DNA of 64,000 bases from an uncultured Candidatus Saccharibacteria bacterium (GCA_964510945.1 CAZEED010000001.1:164577-228576); one strand, 5' to 3'. Shown: positions 3,025-10,152, counted from the stretch's first letter. Made by a program: numbers and translations. Notes: generated by a model from the letters alone, not told the origin.

Positions 3025-3077
3025 TTAATTAATTGTGGGAGGCCGTCGAACAGCCGTTATCACCACTAGGAGAAAAC

Positions 3078-4052
3078 ATGGCAGAAGCCAAAAAAACAAC
3101 TAAAAAGACACCAGAACAAGAAGTAGAGATTCTTGAATCTATTAAGAAGGCCGAAAAAGCTGTCGTAGTCAAAGAAGCCAAAGAAATAGTTGAAGAAGAG
3201 AAGTCTGAAGCTATTACTAAAAAAGCCGGAAAACATAGCGCCAAGGGGCTCAAAGAAGAGCAAGAAAAGTTAGAAAAAATTGAACGCCAAAAGCATAAAG
3301 AAGAACAAGAAGCCGTTGAGCAGTCAAAGCCAAAAGTAGTTCAAAAACCTGCGCGTCCACATCATGAACGCAAAGGTAAAAAGTATCGAGAGAGCTACAA
3401 ACTAATCAACAAAGATACTGAATACAGCCTGAGCGACGCAATTGCTCTTGCAAAAAAGACAAGTAACGTAAAATTTGATGCGTCTGTAGAATTACACGTA
3501 AAGCTAAACGTTAACCCAAAGCACGCGGATCAGAATATTCGTGAAAGCATTGTATTACCTGCAGGAACCGGAAAGAAAGTAACAGTAGCTGTATTTGCAG
3601 AAGCAGAAGATGCAAAAAAGGCAAAAACTGCAGGTGCCGATATCGTTGGTGAAGACGACTTTTTGCAACGCCTAGATAATGGTCAATTTGATTTTGATGT
3701 ACTAGTCTCTACCCCAAAGTTAATGGCTAGACTTGGCAAATATGCCAAAGATCTAGGGCCACGAGGTTTAATGCCTAATCCAAAGAGTGGAACAGTCACA
3801 AACGACGTTGCCAAGGCAGTTACAGAGTCTAAGGGTGGTAAAGTTGAATATCGTGTAGACAGCACTGGTATTGTCCACTTAGCTACTGGTAAAGTTAGCT
3901 TTAGCGACAAAGATCTTGCCCGTAATATCGATACAGTTTTTGCCAGTATCAAAAACGCCAAGCCAACCTCTATAAAAGGGACTTATGTTGATTCTATCTA
4001 CATCAGCACCTCTATGGGGCCAAGTATCAAAGTTGCAAACAACGTAATCTAG
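3078..4052 (+). CDS. rplA: 50S ribosomal protein L1 with a roughly 90-aa Lys/Glu-rich N-terminal extension
   Basis: ATG after AGGAG. The core from [14 protein letters not shown]...[11 protein letters not shown] through [15 protein letters not shown] matches L1. The preceding K/E low-complexity segment is extra. Confidence 0.9.
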
Positions 4053-4183: not shown

Positions 4184-4897
4184 TTGTCTGTATATAGCAA
4201 CACACAAATAAGACAAGCAATCAACTATGGCCATATTGTTTGCACGCCTTTTAATCCAAAACACGTTGCGCATGCTAGCCTCGACGTAACCTTAGGCTAC
4301 TACTACTATCGAACAGAAAGAGCCGGTGACCACACTATCTACAACCCTTTCGACGAAGCCGATGTTTCTAGATATTTTGAGGGCGCCCACAAAGCTGTAC
4401 CACATAAAAAATGGTGTGACGACAATGGAGTAAAACTTCTCAAAGGAGTGCCCGCTGATCATCCAGTAATCCCACTAAAACCGGGAGAGAGAATTCTAGC
4501 CCATACTCATGAATTTTTTGGCATAAAACCACCGGGAGCGTATGAGCTAAAATCACGATCAAGCTGGGGCCGTAATGGCATAGCTGTATGTTTTGATGCA
4601 GGCTGGGTTGACCCTGGTTACATTAATCGCTTAACTCTAGAGATTTTTAATCTCAACCACAAAGAAATCGTACTATTGCCTGTAGGCGAACGTATCGGGC
4701 AAGCAGTATTTCATGACACGGGGCAGGTTGAAGGAAACTATGGAGAGGGTCGAGAAAACGGCTTTAGTGGAAAGTACCAAAGTGGTACAGATCTAGATAC
4801 CCTAATAAAAACCTGGAAGCCAGAAATGATGCTACCAAAAGCGTATAAAGACAAACGATCGTTGCCAGTAAAGATTAAAGGATTAAAAAGTGACTGA
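4184..4897 (+). CDS. dcd: dCTP deaminase family protein (dUTPase fold)
   Basis: TTG start after GAGGGG. N-terminus IRQAINYGHIVCTPFNPKHVAHASLDVTLG resembles the dCTP deaminase N-terminus. 237 aa is longer than typical. Adjacent to tmk/thyX. Confidence 0.7.
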   Translation: MSVYSNTQIRQAINYGHIVCTPFNPKHVAHASLDVTLGYYYYRTERAGDHTIYNPFDEADVSRYFEGAHKAVPHKKWCDDNGVKLLKGVPADHPVIPLKPGERILAHTHEFFGIKPPGAYELKSRSSWGRNGIAVCFDAGWVDPGYINRLTLEIFNLNHKEIVLLPVGERIGQAVFHDTGQVEGNYGEGRENGFSGKYQSGTDLDTLIKTWKPEMMLPKAYKDKRSLPVKIKGLKSD

Positions 4898-7232
4898 CGA
4901 CCCACAAAAATTCGGTGGGAAAGAATCTACTAATTTAGCTAAAGGCATTTTTATCGTTATCGAGGGCACAGACGGCTCTGGGAAAGGGACTCAATTCAAG
5001 CTACTATCGGATCGATTACAGAAAATGGGCTACCAGATTGAAACTTTTGATTTTCCGCAATACGAAAACGATTCAAGCTATTTTGTAAAACAATACCTAA
5101 ACGGAAAATACGGAACATCCGATGAAGTGGGCCCATACACTGGATCAATGTTTTACGCACTAGACCGGTTTGAGGCTGGACCAAAAATTAAGCAGGCTTT
5201 GAACGAAGGAAAAATCGTTATAGCGAATAGGTTCACTGGCTCAAACATGGCTCATCAAGGAACAAAATTCACGAACTCTGAAGAACGAAAGGGGTATTTT
5301 TTATGGCTAGATAATCTTGAATTTATGACACTAAAAATACCTAGACCAGATATTAGTATAGTTCTAAGAATGCCGGCCGAAATCGCTCAAAATCTTGTAG
5401 ACAAAAAAGAAGCTAGGAGCTATACAGATAAGAAACGAGATATCCTCGAAGCAGACTTAAATCACCTTAAAAGATCTGTTGAAGTATATGATGATTTATG
5501 TGAAATATTCCCGAAAGATTTTACTCGTATTGACTGCGTTAGAAATGATCAACTACTAAGTATAGAAGAGGTACAAAAGTTGCTGTGGGAAAAAATAACT
5601 CCGAGATTACCAGTAATTAACGTTACAGAGCTGACCTCCGAAAACGAAAACTATGTCGTGAAAAACGAAAACGGCTCGTTCTCTATAACTAGCGCCGGAA
5701 AAGAATTTTTAAGCGGTGCAATTACAAATACAGATGATAATGTCTATGCATTCACTGGCGAAAATCTTACGCCAATAACCGCTGCTGCAGCAATGGCCAG
5801 ACTGAGCCGTCGTGGGGACGATATGCGCGTGACAATACTAGACGAGTTCGCAAAAAATCTTGGCAAGGATGAAGGCCTGCTAAAACGAGTTATTACTGCG
5901 TATGGTGATGATTCTGTCCAACAACTTGTCGGCCAACACTTGGTAGTAGAAGAAGCGTCCAATCTACTGACTAAAAAACTTGAGTGGGGAAGATTGGCTT
6001 CATATCTAGAACAATCAACACGTTACATTTATTTTGATCAAAAGGATAAAAACGGTCGATACAAGTATTTCACTCCGCCAGAGCTAGACGAGTTAACAAA
6101 ACAAGTTTATGAACAAAAAATGGACAAGCTATTTGATAACTATTCAAAACTTGCTAGCGAACTAACAGACTATGTACGAAATAAATCTACTGTTGCCGAG
6201 TCAGAACGCGATATCGCTTGGAAGGGCGCAACCCGTGCTCAAGCTTGCGATGCAATTAGAGCAGTCCTGCCAGTAGCAACAAAATCAACTGTCGGGATTT
6301 ATGCGTCCGGTCAAGCACTAGAGAGTTTAATTATGCACCTTCAAAGCGACGAATTAGCAGAAGCTAGAACTACTGGTGGCAAAATCCTAGCAGAGTCTAG
6401 AAAGGTTTTGCCAGCATTTTTAGAACGTGCCGACAAGCCCGAAAGAGGCGGAGCAAACATAGCCTACAAAGCCAACACAGCAAGAAAAGTGAAAGATTTA
6501 GCTCTAAACTATCTCCCTAACAATAACGTGGGTGCTAATGAAGACGTGGTTCTTACAGATTATTGGCCAAAAAACGAGTTCGATCTAGTTGCCGACATGC
6601 TATATGACCACAGTTCGTTATCGCTTGATGACATACGTAAGGAAGTCTCAAGCTGGCCATTTGAGCGTAAACAAGAGGTTTTTGATGCTTATGTGGGTGA
6701 AAGGCTAAATAGACGTCATAAACCCGGCAGAGCCCTAGAAAAGGCACATTACAGCTGGGATCTTGTGTGTGATTACGGAATCTTTCGCGATTTACAGCGT
6801 CATCGCATTGTCGATGACCTAGAATGGCAACTATTAACACCAAGATATGGTTATGAGATTCCAGAACTCGTAGAAAAGGCCGGGTTAAGTGATCTATTTG
6901 AACAGTGTTTTGATATGAGCCTAACGTTATATAGCGACATGCAACAGGCGGGATATGCACTCGAGGCTCAGTATGCAACGCTACTTGGCCATAAAATGCG
7001 CTGGAAAGTCACGTACAACGCTAGAGAAGCCTTTCATTTGCACGAACTCCGTACTGCTCCTCAGGGCCACCCAGGATATCGCAAACTTGTTAAACAAATG
7101 CACGATAGACTGTGCGAAGTGCATCCATCTATTGGCGCAGCCATGAAATTCGTCAACAAAGACGAAGATCCCGAGCTAACAAGACTTGCAGCTGAAAAAT
7201 ACACTCAGTTCAAACTAAAAGGTCTTCAGTAG
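4890..7232 (+). CDS. tmk-thyX: fusion protein: N-terminal thymidylate kinase plus a C-terminal large ThyX-like (FAD-dependent thymidylate synthase) region
   Basis: P-loop IEGTDGSGKGTQ and ANRFTGSNMAHQG (Tmk). C-terminal FRDLQRHRIVD...PRYG and FHLHELRTAPQGHPGYR resemble the ThyX RHR signature region. A single uninterrupted 780-aa ORF. Confidence 0.75.
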   Translation: MTDDPQKFGGKESTNLAKGIFIVIEGTDGSGKGTQFKLLSDRLQKMGYQIETFDFPQYENDSSYFVKQYLNGKYGTSDEVGPYTGSMFYALDRFEAGPKIKQALNEGKIVIANRFTGSNMAHQGTKFTNSEERKGYFLWLDNLEFMTLKIPRPDISIVLRMPAEIAQNLVDKKEARSYTDKKRDILEADLNHLKRSVEVYDDLCEIFPKDFTRIDCVRNDQLLSIEEVQKLLWEKITPRLPVINVTELTSENENYVVKNENGSFSITSAGKEFLSGAITNTDDNVYAFTGENLTPITAAAAMARLSRRGDDMRVTILDEFAKNLGKDEGLLKRVITAYGDDSVQQLVGQHLVVEEASNLLTKKLEWGRLASYLEQSTRYIYFDQKDKNGRYKYFTPPELDELTKQVYEQKMDKLFDNYSKLASELTDYVRNKSTVAESERDIAWKGATRAQACDAIRAVLPVATKSTVGIYASGQALESLIMHLQSDELAEARTTGGKILAESRKVLPAFLERADKPERGGANIAYKANTARKVKDLALNYLPNNNVGANEDVVLTDYWPKNEFDLVADMLYDHSSLSLDDIRKEVSSWPFERKQEVFDAYVGERLNRRHKPGRALEKAHYSWDLVCDYGIFRDLQRHRIVDDLEWQLLTPRYGYEIPELVEKAGLSDLFEQCFDMSLTLYSDMQQAGYALEAQYATLLGHKMRWKVTYNAREAFHLHELRTAPQGHPGYRKLVKQMHDRLCEVHPSIGAAMKFVNKDEDPELTRLAAEKYTQFKLKGLQ

Positions 7233-7542
7233 GCATTTTATAGGTAACTTCTAAAAGCATATGCTCATCATCAAAAACTCGCGAAACATCTAAGACAACC
7301 TCCCCAATCGCTAAAACACGATCCGGATTTTCTACGCAAGGCGTAATATCAGCCTCGTATTGAAACACTTCATGGGCGATAGCGTGTATCGGGTCGTGAC
7401 CAACAGCAAAATACCCCAGGATTGGCCTGCTCGGCTCATAGCCATCTGCTATCCGACCAAGATTGTCGACAACTTTTTTTCCCATTCTTGCTCCAAGAGT
7501 CTCAACTGAATCGCTCGGGCTAGGTAATCTAATTAGTGACAT
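7210..7542 (-). CDS. hypothetical acidic protein
   Basis: The start at MSLIRLPSP (ATG 7542) is preferred because GAGGA lies just upstream and a terminator hairpin occupies the longer N-terminal extension in the ORF track. The 3' end overlaps the thyX stop convergently by 23 nt. Confidence 0.5.
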   Translation of the reverse strand: MSLIRLPSPSDSVETLGARMGKKVVDNLGRIADGYEPSRPILGYFAVGHDPIHAIAHEVFQYEADITPCVENPDRVLAIGEVVLDVSRVFDDEHMLLEVTYKMPTEDLLV

Positions 7543-7554
7543 AATATCCTCATT

Positions 7555-7579
7555 AAAAAAGCCTCCGTTTCGCGGAGGC
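7555..7579 (-). terminator. hairpin plus T-tract immediately upstream of the 7542 start (attenuator-like)
   Basis: Minus strand reads GCCTCCG-CGAAA-CGGAGGC followed by TTTTTT. An upstream GGAGGCC (7613-7619) can pair with the 5' arm as an alternative structure. Confidence 0.5.
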
Positions 7580-7732
7580 CAGTCTTTCGTTCTTTGTTGC
7601 GTTATCGCAATCGGCCTCCACACATATCGCCACAAATGATCACTCGATTTGTGAGCATTGTTTTATGGCTATATTTGGCTCGTTGTATTAGTTTATTCAT
7701 ACCGCAATTAAAATTACTCCTATAAAAAGGGG

Positions 7733-7760
7733 TTGTCAAGAATATTTTTTATGCTAAATT
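7733..7760 (+). promoter_or_regulatory. putative sigma70-type promoter for the leuA-like leader
   Basis: TTGTCA (7733-7738), 16-nt spacer, TAAATT (7755-7760). The same hexamer region read on the minus strand is TTGACA, suggesting divergent promoters. Confidence 0.35.
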
Positions 7761-7769
7761 ATATATCTA

Positions 7770-7847
7770 ATGATAACTAAATCGTTGAAGCAACAAATTC
7801 TACTGCTAGGCCTACAAGGGTTGTGCTTCAACATGGTTGAAGCCTAA
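7770..7847 (+). CDS. candidate Leu-rich leader peptide (25 aa: MITKSLKQQILLLGLQGLCFNMVEA)
   Basis: ATG 7770, TAA 7845-7847. Codons CTA CTG CTA GGC CTA at 7800-7814. The stop abuts the antiterminator arm. No SD; the start lies about 10 nt after the putative -10 box. Confidence 0.45.
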   Translation: MITKSLKQQILLLGLQGLCFNMVEA

Positions 7848-7881
7848 GCGTATATTTCGCTTCTAGCACAACCGACATCAA

Positions 7882-7906
7882 ACGGCTTCAACGAAGCCGT
7901 TTTTTT
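7882..7906 (+). terminator. attenuator terminator upstream of the leuA-like gene
   Basis: ACGGCTTC-AAC-GAAGCCGT followed by a T-run, ending 6 nt before the AAGGAG RBS of the 7925 ORF. GTTGAAGCC (7836-7844) is complementary to GGCTTCAAC (7884-7892), which would act as an antiterminator. Confidence 0.6.
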
Positions 7907-7924
7907 AAATTTAAGGAGAAAATA

Positions 7925-9208
7925 ATGAGTATTGAACAAGTAGAAGTACATATTTTTGACACAACTTTACGTGATGGGGCCCAATCCTTGCCTGAAGACC
8001 ATCAATTTCCCGTAGGATCGAAGACGGAAATTGCCGATAAAATTGCAAGTTTAGGTGTAAACATAATCGAAGCAGGTTTTCCAGTTACGCCAGGCGATGC
8101 GGATGAAGTAGAAGAGGTAGCTAGAACAATTGGTAATAAAGCCTATTCTGTCTCAAGATGGGAACAAGCAGAGTTATCAGGTGAAGTTAAGCAACCACCT
8201 GTTATTGCCGGTCTATCTCGTACAACCCAAGGCGATATCGAAGCAACGTGGGCGGCAATCCAATACGCTTCTCGCCCACGAATACATACTTTTGTCTCGA
8301 CAGATCCTGAGCATATGGCCGCAAAGTTTCCAGGAAAGTCTCAGGCCCAAGTAGTAAATATGGGAAGGGATGCTATCCGTATGGCGCGAAATTTTGCAGA
8401 CGAGCATCCCGGAGCTTCAGTAGAATTTTCCGCGGAAGCTGCTAGTACAACAGATACCGTATATTTAGAAGAAGTAATTAGAACGGCAGTGTCAGAAGGT
8501 GCCGATATAATCAATCTTCCGGATACCGTAGGTCAAAGAAATCCATTTTGGATGAAAGATTTTTACTCTAAAGCTATAGAGTGGATTCACTCAGAAAATC
8601 CTGACGTAGTAATCTCCGCGCACAACCATAATGATTTAGGGATGGCTGCCGCGAATAGCTATGCTTTATTGTTAGCCGCCGGAGATGCTGCACAAAAATC
8701 ACAGTCCAGAGTCAATATCCAAATTGAAGGGACAATTTGTGGCTTAGGCGAACGTGCAGGCAATGCAGACATCTTCACTGTAATGGGAGAGTTCTATAAG
8801 TTTGTTGGTGATTTGGCAGTCCCAGTAACATGGAGCTTTAATCCAGAAAAATCCGTCCAAATAGCTAATGATGTTATGGATTACGCCAGATTCAGTGTTG
8901 ATCGACAGAATCCTATTGTTGGCCAAGATACAATGGTACATCGTTCTGGAATTCACAGTGACGGTGTAATTAAGGGTGGTCATCAGATATATACCCCACA
9001 TGACCCTACTTTCTGGGGCCATAGTGAACAAGCCGTCCACGAAGAAGGACGATATCAAGGCAAAGCAGGCCGTGCAGCCGTAAATGAATCAATTTCACAG
9101 ATTGGAGCTTCCGACTTAAGGGAAGTAATAGATGGGACTTTGAACCCAGACGAACACGATTACGACGGATTCGAAAATGAATTAAGAGCCGCTGGTGTCA
9201 CTATTTGA
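7925..9208 (+). CDS. leuA: 2-isopropylmalate synthase-like protein (HMGL-like catalytic domain, no C-terminal regulatory domain)
   Basis: FDTTLRDGAQS, IHTFVSTDPEHM, HNHNDLGMAAANS and GLGERAGNA. 427 aa, shorter than typical LeuA. Confidence 0.75.
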   Translation: MSIEQVEVHIFDTTLRDGAQSLPEDHQFPVGSKTEIADKIASLGVNIIEAGFPVTPGDADEVEEVARTIGNKAYSVSRWEQAELSGEVKQPPVIAGLSRTTQGDIEATWAAIQYASRPRIHTFVSTDPEHMAAKFPGKSQAQVVNMGRDAIRMARNFADEHPGASVEFSAEAASTTDTVYLEEVIRTAVSEGADIINLPDTVGQRNPFWMKDFYSKAIEWIHSENPDVVISAHNHNDLGMAAANSYALLLAAGDAAQKSQSRVNIQIEGTICGLGERAGNADIFTVMGEFYKFVGDLAVPVTWSFNPEKSVQIANDVMDYARFSVDRQNPIVGQDTMVHRSGIHSDGVIKGGHQIYTPHDPTFWGHSEQAVHEEGRYQGKAGRAAVNESISQIGASDLREVIDGTLNPDEHDYDGFENELRAAGVTI

Positions 9209-9313
9209 CATTAATCGACACAGAAATTATGATTGTTGATATGTATATTGCAATTATTCAAATTATTGGAGGAACCGTAAGCGCGGAGTAGTGTTAATAT
9301 CGTCAAAAAAACA

Positions 9314-9337
9314 AACCCCGCGCCAAGCGGGGTTTTT
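9314..9337 (+). terminator. intrinsic terminator (A-tract upstream, possibly bidirectional)
   Basis: AACCCCGC-GCCAA-GCGGGGTT followed by TTTTT. Confidence 0.7.
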
Positions 9338-9351
9338 AAGATAGGAAAAGT

Positions 9352-9953: not shown

Positions 9954-9983
9954 TTTGACAGTAGCATCTCACTCTGTTAAGAT
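9954..9983 (+). promoter_or_regulatory. putative promoter of the rplJL operon
   Basis: TTGACA (9954-9959), 18-nt spacer, TAAGAT (9978-9983). Confidence 0.45.
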
Positions 9984-9995
9984 ACATTAGTTAAT

Positions 9996-10105
9996 TACCA
10001 AAGACAGCGATGGTCGTATGCGACTTAATAATATCGCCGAGGCAAAAACATCAACTTTTTGTATCGTACGTTTTTAAAAGTCTTTGGTAGCCCAAGGGCT
10101 TTTTT
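9996..10105 (+). promoter_or_regulatory. candidate L10-leader-like autoregulatory 5' UTR
   Basis: Long-range pairing of TACCAAAGAC (9996-10005) with GTCTTTGGTA (10080-10089) encloses an internal region. A short GC hairpin and T-run follow, directly upstream of rplJ. Confidence 0.4.
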
Positions 10106-10152
10106 AGTCCTCGCACATTTATAAGTAACAAAATAATAAAAGAAAGGAAGAT

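Follow-up and report, generated by a model that had tools for sequence, protein, structure and literature searches.

A putative leucine-codon transcription attenuator upstream of a LeuA-like gene represents a large leader family in Saccharibacteria

The window, a 64,000-nt stretch of a Candidatus Saccharibacteria genome, harbours at 7733-7924 a leucine-codon leader in the gene order rplA - dcd - tmk/thyX - (minus-strand ORF) - leader - LeuA-like - 199-aa ORF - L10 leader - rplJ - rplL. The 427-aa product of the gene behind the leader carries an HMGL-like catalytic domain (PF00682; 164.6 bits), falls into the LeuA / citramalate / homocitrate synthase family and has isopropylmalate synthases as its nearest solved structures. 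Its best curated-family match is 2-isopropylmalate synthase (NF002086), at 251 bits versus a cutoff of 532 and with an alignment spanning model positions 4-349 of 516, and the protein lacks the C-terminal LeuA regulatory (leucine-binding) domain, with no LeuA_dimer match in Pfam. The enzyme is best described as LeuA-like, scoring far below the curated LeuA cutoffs, and its substrate is presumed from homology. No leuBCD or ilvCDE was found among the window genes examined, nor within 10 kb of the locus in three relatives. The features of the locus are as follows.

7733..7760, + strand: promoter-like site, with −35 TTGTCA (7733-7738), a 16-nt spacer and an extended −10 TG-TAAATT (7755-7760), seen in the sequence
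7770..7847, + strand: leader ORF of 25 codons, MITKSLKQQILLLGLQGLCFNMVEA plus stop; the homologous frame is open across the family
7784..7796, + strand: segment 1, GTTGAAGCAACAA, complement of segment 2 and arm of a candidate 1:2 (pause or protector) hairpin, present in the minimum free energy (MFE) fold
7797..7814, + strand: putative regulatory codon run ATT CTA CTG CTA GGC CTA (I L L L G L), from the family codon pattern
7819..7826, + strand: stem B, GGTTGTGC, 5′ arm that pairs with D and closes a three-way junction (anti-antiterminator), from covariation
7825..7832, + strand: core of segment 2, GCTTCAAC, with segment 1 or segment 3 as its partner, from folding
7836..7844, + strand: segment 3, GTTGAAGCC, antiterminator 5′ arm that ends at the leader stop, from family pairing
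7846..7862, + strand: small hairpin H, AAGCG-TATATTT-CGCTT (7846-7850 with 7858-7862), from the fold
7866..7873, + strand: stem D, GCACAACC, 3′ arm of the closing stem, pairing with 7819-7826
7880..7906, + strand: predicted intrinsic terminator, AAACGGCTTC-AAC-GAAGCCGTTT plus T-run, from folding and a terminator scan
7913..7918, + strand: Shine-Dalgarno AAGGAG of the structural gene, seen in the sequence
7925..9208, + strand: putatively regulated gene, encoding the 427-aa LeuA-family (HMGL-like) enzyme, from profile and structure matches

The leader ORF, which is presumably translated, encodes six leucines (codons 6, 11, 12, 13, 15 and 18), four of them inside five consecutive codons (CTA CTG CTA GGC CTA; 7800-7814). 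The encoded peptide is hydrophobic, with the hydrophobic run and GLCFxMVEA as its conserved parts, and its stop codon (TAA; 7845-7847) abuts the 3′ end of the antiterminator 5′ arm (7836-7844). The ATG is located 9 nt downstream of the −10 and lacks a Shine-Dalgarno. Within the leader family described below, the −10 is 6-10 nt from the start in 37 of the 39 leaders with a recognised promoter, and an SD-like motif precedes the start in only 3 of 82. As the −10 is close to the ATG and no Shine-Dalgarno is present, the putative transcript start probably coincides with the leader ATG or is only a few bases away from it, leaving the ORF leaderless or nearly so.

Several segments of the leader can pair in mutually exclusive ways. 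Segment 1 (GTTGAAGCAACAA; 7784-7796) is complementary to TTGTGCTTCAAC (7821-7832) and behaves like one arm of a 1:2 hairpin, while the core of segment 2 can form a 2:3 hairpin (GCTTCAAC, 7825-7832, with GTTGAAGC, 7836-7843). The antiterminator pairs segment 3 (GTTGAAGCC; 7836-7844) with segment 4 (GGCTTCAAC; 7884-7892), the latter consisting of the terminator 5′ arm plus loop. The terminator hairpin is of 10 bp (7880-7902), and its seven-T run (7900-7906) ends 6 nt 5′ of the AAGGAG at 7913-7918. Predicted energies are −11.9 kcal mol−1 for 1:2, −9.4 for 2:3, −4.4 for hairpin H, −20.2 for the whole junction, −12.3 for the antiterminator and −11.8 for the terminator. The leader region is more stable than its shuffles (MFE z = −2.76), of which only 2 in 200 matched it. 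A covariance model built from relatives matches 7774-7906 (111.8 bits; E = 2.7e-31); a search of the 64-kb window with this model found no significant second copy. A further candidate leader, which this model does not match, is located at 9229-9340.

The leader ORF with its six leucines and the CTA CTG CTA GGC CTA stretch, the stop codon directly behind the antiterminator 5′ arm, the pairing of 7784-7796 with 7821-7832, the antiterminator, and a terminator with T-run 6 nt before the ribosome-binding site had all been claimed in a preliminary description of the sequence; each was recovered base for base. The closing stem (7819-7826 with 7866-7873), the 2:3 hairpin, hairpin H (7846-7862) and the promoter-like site had been overlooked.

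Relatives were collected through the protein, which gave a set of 12 loci (five from the genome collection and seven from a protein search) that is not RNA-biased. In all 12, the leader is located 17-30 nt upstream of the short LeuA-like gene (55-93% identity) and the small ORF with its leucine run is kept; a lack of such conservation had been named in the preliminary description as grounds for refuting its reading. The five Saccharibacteria loci of the genome collection, whose proteins are 57-93% identical to that of the window, all show the conserved core and a terminator together with a small ORF in which the run reads LLLxL; the nearest genome record is a Saccharibacteria metagenome-assembled genome (MAG) with a downstream protein of 93% identity. 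The protein search returned at least 120 clusters of the short LeuA-like enzyme at 55-65% identity, and seven loci taken blind from it were then scanned with the covariance model. Each of the seven matched (82.6-107.8 bits), with the match ending 17-30 nt before the gene. Leucine-rich runs (QLLLLGL, QLLLLSL, RVLLSL, QQLLLGL, SLLLLSL and GLLLSL) were found in six of the seven, the run being degenerate in the remaining one (L208). In four of the blind loci, the gene lies in quite different neighbourhoods outside the rplA-rplJ gap, and the leader is still attached to it.

Comparison of the window with L007 (93% protein identity) found leader substitutions only in wobble positions of the run, in non-run codons and in loops, and none in the paired leader segments; all three consecutive Leu codons are altered synonymously in L007. 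A more distant LeuA-family gene of Saccharibacteria (L020; 34% identity) has a Leu leader of its own (…NLGLLLGL…) plus a terminator, with no covariance-model match at that locus. Scanning 74 LeuA loci from other, non-Saccharibacteria phyla with the model gave no match, which rules out a general LeuA leader.

A metagenome scan with a degenerate DNA pattern of the core matched at least 120 loci, among which at least about 100 are true homologues and at least 81 are distinct leaders. Divergent copies beyond the reach of the pattern were added by the covariance model, and a single contig often carries them in tandem (L008, L097, L104, L009 and L113). Judged from these sequences, the leader does not stand alone but belongs to a large, uncatalogued family in Saccharibacteria. 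The pattern by which most family sequences were gathered prescribes some bases of segments 2, 3 and D, and the family counts given here ignore phylogeny.

The putative off-state (closing stem, 2:3 hairpin, hairpin H and terminator) is 88.7% paired across the family, versus 29-47% in slid controls, and pairing is similar on a model-based alignment. It contains 139 double-change cells, as compared with 65.7 in shuffles, and none of 500 shuffles reached 139. The closing stem (B:D) is paired in 98.6% of cells and covaries: at one column pair, whose 5′ side was left free by the search pattern, 65 sequences have C-G, 14 have U-A and one is mismatched. The 2:3 helix is 91% paired, with no compensatory double changes in the family alignment. 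The terminator helix is 91.6% paired and has five covarying pairs. Hairpin H forms at least 4 bp in all 82 members folded singly and is free in sequence (mean −6.1 kcal mol−1, versus −1.7 when shuffled). Its pairing is only 50-55% in the MAFFT and model-based alignments; as the per-sequence folds give 82 of 82, the low value is taken as an alignment artefact of its variable length. Segment 1 complements segment 2 in about three quarters of the members, and the mean 1:2 duplex is of −10.4 kcal mol−1, versus −6.0 in shuffles and −6.5 in a promoter-region control.

The antiterminator (3:4) is paired in 97.8% of cells over 80 distinct sequences (96.5% on the model-based alignment), versus 14-54% when slid. 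Compensation within it includes A-U to G-C in five sequences and C-G to U-A in two, plus G-C to A-U in two members of the blind set (L208 and L210). In addition, segments 3, 4 and 5 covary as a triple (GGAG / CTCC / GGAG) in L090, L098, L171, L190 and L192. The terminator loop AAC(C), which the terminator itself does not need, is conserved, and this is explained by the pairing of AACC with segment 3. The terminator and antiterminator pairings of the window are thus maintained in the family with compensatory changes.

The downstream genes were clustered and then identified by profile matches. The kinds identified are LeuA-like enzymes, acetolactate synthase, threonine dehydratase and RidA, and they include a biosynthetic acetolactate synthase (AHAS) large subunit (704 bits; cutoff 538) together with the small subunit, and a biosynthetic threonine dehydratase (IlvA; 667 bits; cutoff 411) together with short relatives. 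In leaders that precede LeuA-like genes, no more than one of the seven run codons is for Ile or Val (18 of 18; Leu-type), whereas those that precede AHAS, IlvA or RidA have two to five Ile/Val in the run (10 of 10; Fisher P value = 7.6e-8, phylogeny ignored). Both types of leader are found on single contigs (L008, L097, L104 and L009). Contig L104 also carries an Ile-type leader (…SIIPRI…) directly 5′ of a full-length LeuA-family gene, which may encode a citramalate synthase. On this comparison, the putative regulatory codons match the end product of the branched-chain pathway gene that follows.

We therefore regard 7733-7924 as very probably a ribosome-mediated leader-peptide transcription attenuator, which would tie the LeuA-like gene to the supply of charged tRNA-Leu. 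The transcript would begin at or beside the ATG of the 25-codon ORF. With Leu-tRNA plentiful, the ribosome would reach the stop at 7845 and cover segment 3 (7836-7844), and after its release the RNA would fold into the three-way junction (7819-7826 with 7866-7873, 7825-7832 with 7836-7843, and 7846-7862); either way, segment 4 (7884-7892) would be free to pair with 7893-7902, forming the terminator and stopping transcription at about 7903-7906. A stall on the last Leu codons (CTA at 7806 or 7812, or TTG at 7821) would instead open the closing stem along with the base of the 2:3 hairpin, so that segment 3 could capture segment 4 once made, the terminator would be blocked and RNA polymerase would enter the gene. 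Stalling is thereby predicted to turn the gene on.

This model was examined by masked folding of 82 leaders, using transcripts that end at segment 4 with all bases up to the leading edge of the ribosome masked. The antiterminator was the MFE structure in 20% of the leaders with the edge 3 nt before the closing stem, in 56% at the first base of this stem, in 94% at +3 and in 99% from +7. The leader of the window flips to the antiterminator once masked through 7826, and from footprint geometry a ribosome with codon 7812 in its A site reaches approximately 7824-7827; at TTG 7821, the ribosome covers all of segment 2. Only stalls at 7806/7812 or at 7821 reach far enough in the window, as early-run stalls do not flip it, and the 8-bp 2:3 hairpin (−9.4 kcal mol−1) could hold segment 3 during a stall on the first Leu codons. 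In full-length RNA of the window, the terminator is the MFE structure whatever is masked, and across the family the antiterminator wins with the best mask in only 30 of 82 leaders. Since the full-length MFE favours the terminator, the choice must be kinetic, that is, antitermination would have to arise by kinetic competition; classical attenuators also choose kinetically. The preliminary description had proposed that a ribosome at the stop permits termination and one stalled at the Leu codons prevents it. The folding supports this logic for stalls late in the run, and adds to it an element that it requires and that was absent there, namely the three-way-junction anti-antiterminator, which would hold the antiterminator arm unless the ribosome stalls that late.

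The same architecture could act with the opposite sign, with a stall masking segment 1 so that 2 holds 3 and 4:5 terminates, and with efficient or no translation leading to read-through along a simple chain of 1:2, 2:3, 3:4 and 4:5. A ribosome that stalls early in the run would indeed cover segment 1, 65% of members are predicted to form 1:2 plus 3:4 as free RNA (so that untranslated RNA would favour read-through, unlike in trp), and the 20% that form the antiterminator with the edge before the closing stem are few. However, a ribosome at the conserved last codon of the run masks the closing stem, whereupon 94-99% of the leaders favour 3:4. Moreover, the leader stop is 0-12 nt downstream of segment 3 in 83 of the 85 listed copies, so that a terminating ribosome would cover the antiterminator arm. 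Shutting biosynthetic genes under starvation for their own product would make no regulatory sense, and the match between run and gene fits induction by starvation. We thus judge the reversed polarity to be very improbable.

It is likewise very unlikely that the junction is the sensor of a switch that binds a ligand, a tRNA or a protein (a riboswitch, or a device resembling a T-box or TRAP) and to which the ORF is incidental, even though the three-way junction is compact, its sequence is strongly conserved and a terminator lies behind it. A match to a known riboswitch or T-box, which the preliminary description had listed as evidence against attenuation, was not obtained: Rfam at gathering thresholds over the whole window gave no family in the leader region, and at E up to 10 over 7500-8000 it gave chance matches only (freshwater-2, 20.8 bits; MicF, 20.4 bits), with no T-box model among them, by which known leader, T-box and riboswitch families were rejected. 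In addition, the sequence of the junction linkers and of hairpin H varies freely, and a binding switch would leave unexplained why otherwise identical scaffolds carry Leu or Ile/Val runs according to gene. The leader frame, finally, is open in 84 of 85 listed copies (from 15 codons before to 8 after the GGG), versus 10 of 85 and 5 of 85 for the other two frames, which argues against an incidental ORF.

The constraint on this frame is not uniform. In the run codons of the family, the second base is almost always T and the third varies freely (entropy 1.1-1.9 bits); the run codons are CTN for 96% of Leu and ATT for 89% of Ile, as compared with 68% and 42% in neighbouring genes. From the GGG codon on, third positions are invariant in the family alignment. 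Peptide changes in this second part keep the RNA pairing, so in the 5′ half of the leader it appears to be the codons that are under constraint, and in the 3′ half the structure. For example, the GLRF variant of L097 and the GSCF variant of L104 coincide with compensatory base changes that keep the closing stem (GGGCTGCGC:GCGTAGCCC and GGGTCGTGC:GCACGACCC, respectively), and L009, which stops directly after the run, and L111 and L211, which shift frame, lose the peptide and keep the RNA. Such a pattern bears on the reading of the ORF as a functional small hydrophobic (membrane or signalling) peptide with the hairpin merely its terminator, for which the conserved hydrophobic peptide (run plus GLCFxMVEA) might speak. 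With the C-terminal half fixed as nucleotides, third positions included, with a terminator loop conserved for pairing with segment 3, and with a leader that ends 17-30 nt before the gene in seven of seven blind loci although this gene has its own Shine-Dalgarno, a peptide function hardly seems credible. That the leader is a relic, kept by descent and regulating nothing useful in a reduced genome, as no visible leuBCD and the many members preceding only small ORFs of no assigned function might suggest, is extremely improbable, given that the substitutions between the window and L007 spare every paired segment and that the leader stays with its gene in four different genomic contexts.

The attenuator reading places the leader beside well-known systems. 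In the enterobacterial leu leader (leuL; Rfam Leu_leader) and in the trp, his and ilv attenuators, an ORF with cognate codons, a terminator and a mutually exclusive antiterminator are combined, and which of the two forms depends on where the ribosome stands; the his leader also has a chain of alternately complementary segments. The Saccharibacteria leader has the same parts (a short cognate-codon ORF, a terminator and an exclusive antiterminator) and would follow the same logic, so that the likeness to the enterobacterial leu leader drawn in the preliminary description extends to the logic, though the RNA is unrelated: it has no match to any Rfam leader. It also differs from the enterobacterial leaders in that its start is probably leaderless whereas theirs are SD-led, that its predicted anti-antiterminator is a three-way junction whose closing stem the stalled ribosome would unwind, and that the same scaffold recurs with runs of Leu, of Ile or of Ile/Val codons; in contrast to enterobacterial leu, a single LeuA-like gene and not leuABCD would be controlled.

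In actinobacteria, a Leu-run uORF precedes leuA, and Ile/Val/Leu-run uORFs plus terminators precede ilvB (Seliverstov et al. 2005, PMC1262725). Both groups thus have a uORF with a Leu run in front of a leuA-type gene. The actinobacterial LEU element, however, is described as a pseudoknot, in the base stem of which the Leu codons pair with the Shine-Dalgarno of leuA (PMC1262725), whereas the Saccharibacteria leader has a clear intrinsic terminator. Pairing of the LEU-element kind was rejected for the window, where AAGGAG finds no complementary stretch in the run CUACUGCUAGGCCUA. As far as the available portions of the reports go, the ilv-leu operon of Staphylococcus aureus has a leucine-rich attenuator peptide (PMC5794164) and Corynebacterium ilvB-II has a uORF rich in branched-chain codons (PMC10272879); in these too, a uORF of branched-chain codons controls branched-chain biosynthesis, yet the RNAs, so far as described there, are unrelated and the hosts are free-living prototrophs. 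Leader-peptide control of leuA and ilvB is in this sense established elsewhere (PMC1262725; and, from the portions available, PMC5794164 and PMC10272879). A literature search found no account of attenuators, or of LeuA-like, AHAS or IlvA enzymes, in Saccharibacteria, which is absence of evidence only. The mechanism is not new; the host phylum, the swappable sensing codons and the unexplained cargo are what is notable.

To our knowledge, Saccharibacteria and other bacteria of the candidate phyla radiation (CPR) are usually described as being without amino-acid biosynthesis and with few regulatory systems. The leaders suggest that a textbook mechanism is used widely in this phylum on one RNA scaffold, with the sensing codons exchanged to suit the gene, and they provide indirect evidence for coupled transcription-translation and for leaderless initiation in Saccharibacteria. 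The covariance model could serve to annotate this uncatalogued cis-regulatory RNA family in CPR genomes, and the family constitutes a natural codon-swap series for studies of attenuator specificity. It also points to orphan first-step enzymes and small proteins as genes whose expression these symbionts may tie to the supply of Leu, Ile and Val.

More speculatively, the leader family might be a general branched-chain starvation sensor of episymbiotic Saccharibacteria with control over a hypervariable cargo slot, which in most cases lies between rplA and rplJ; we hold this broader idea to be possible but rather doubtful. The slot would hold orphan first-step enzymes (LeuA-like, AHAS, IlvA and RidA), the remainder of whose pathway is not visible, or fast-evolving small proteins, and, if so, stalling would link a shortage of amino acids to functions directed at the host or to metabolite exchange and not to de novo synthesis. 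Well over half of the listed family members precede only small ORFs of no assigned function. Their origin as LeuA remnants was rejected, as the NLPA motif is absent from the C-termini of LeuA-like proteins. Among the small downstream proteins, a family ending PYSGTE...NLPA follows Leu-type leaders, and a MYDMYPDY family follows leaders of the Ile/Leu/Val-type.

Window positions 9205-9345, between the LeuA-like gene and a 199-aa ORF, are a candidate second leader-peptide attenuator with the following features:

9205-9233, promoter-like site TTGACA-17-TATGAT
9229-9291, 20-codon ORF MIVDMYIAIIQIIGGTVSAE followed by a stop codon, with six Ile codons, all of them ATT
about 9312-9339, hairpin AAACCCCGC-GCCAA-GCGGGGTTT followed by a T-run

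The 5′ arm of the hairpin contains CCGCGC, which is complementary to GCGCGG in the final codons of the ORF, and the MFE z of the region is −3.08. The candidate leader is kept in the closest related locus (L007), where all six Ile residues are retained (6/6) whereas four other residues are altered. The covariance model of the main leader family returned no match to 9205-9345.

Tandem leaders that differ in codon type were also observed on single contigs of the related loci L008, L097, L104, L009 and L113 (as well as L124, L176 and L199). For example, in L008 the leader ahead of a LeuA-like gene is of the Leu type, and the one ahead of a small ORF with AHAS-IlvN-RidA after it is of the Ile type; in L104, which harbours both types, a full-length LeuA-family gene follows the Ile-type leader.

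Codon choice in the runs of the main leader (window 7797-7814) and its family is strongly biased: CTC, CTA and CTT are preferred over TTA, TTG and CTG, and 89% of the Ile codons are ATT. Such a bias suggests that the codon runs depend on particular tRNA isoacceptors.

Immediately downstream of Leu-type leaders, approximately 15 small proteins (60-160 aa) were found to have a C-terminal motif in common, which consists of ..PY[SDAC]G[TSND]E.., about 20 aa and then ..NLPA at the extreme C-terminus. They are encoded by the first ORF after the leader in L091, L096, L120, L143, L166, L167, L179, L133, L104 and other loci. A Pfam scan of two of them (from L120 and L143) yielded no match, and the proteins of this group are not fragments of LeuA. 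Mixed runs of the form (L/F)(V/I)LIIL(G/A) are present in the leaders of L116, L180, L182 and L206, which are followed by a separate small-protein family with the N-terminus MYDMYPD(Y/S)....

An unrelated Leu-rich leader precedes a distantly related LeuA-family gene from Saccharibacteria (L020; 34% identity), where the leader peptide MLRSFINKTALVNLGLLLGLDFTWRQ, ending at a stop codon, is followed by the terminator AAGCCGCCT-ACAC-AGGCGGTTTTT (L020 positions 2786-2930).

Upstream of rplJ, window positions 9980-10115 match the Rfam L10_leader (63.9 bits). It follows that the insertion comprising the BCAA-type leader with its cargo lies in the interval from rplA to this L10 leader, an arrangement that recurs in most of the related loci. 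Between the convergent upstream genes and the leader promoter stands a hairpin of bidirectional-terminator form (7560-7590; GCCTCCG-CGAAA-CGGAGGC, with A- and T-runs on its flanks). Further upstream, a single 780-aa ORF (4890-7232) carries a dTMP kinase domain (residues ~18-218) and a ThyX thymidylate synthase domain (~297-512), a fusion that is also called in the related loci. The rplA ORF as listed (3033-4052; 339 aa) has its L1 domain beginning only at residue 113; it either bears an N-terminal extension or has its true start further downstream; in the related locus L207, a 341-aa product is called for rplA.
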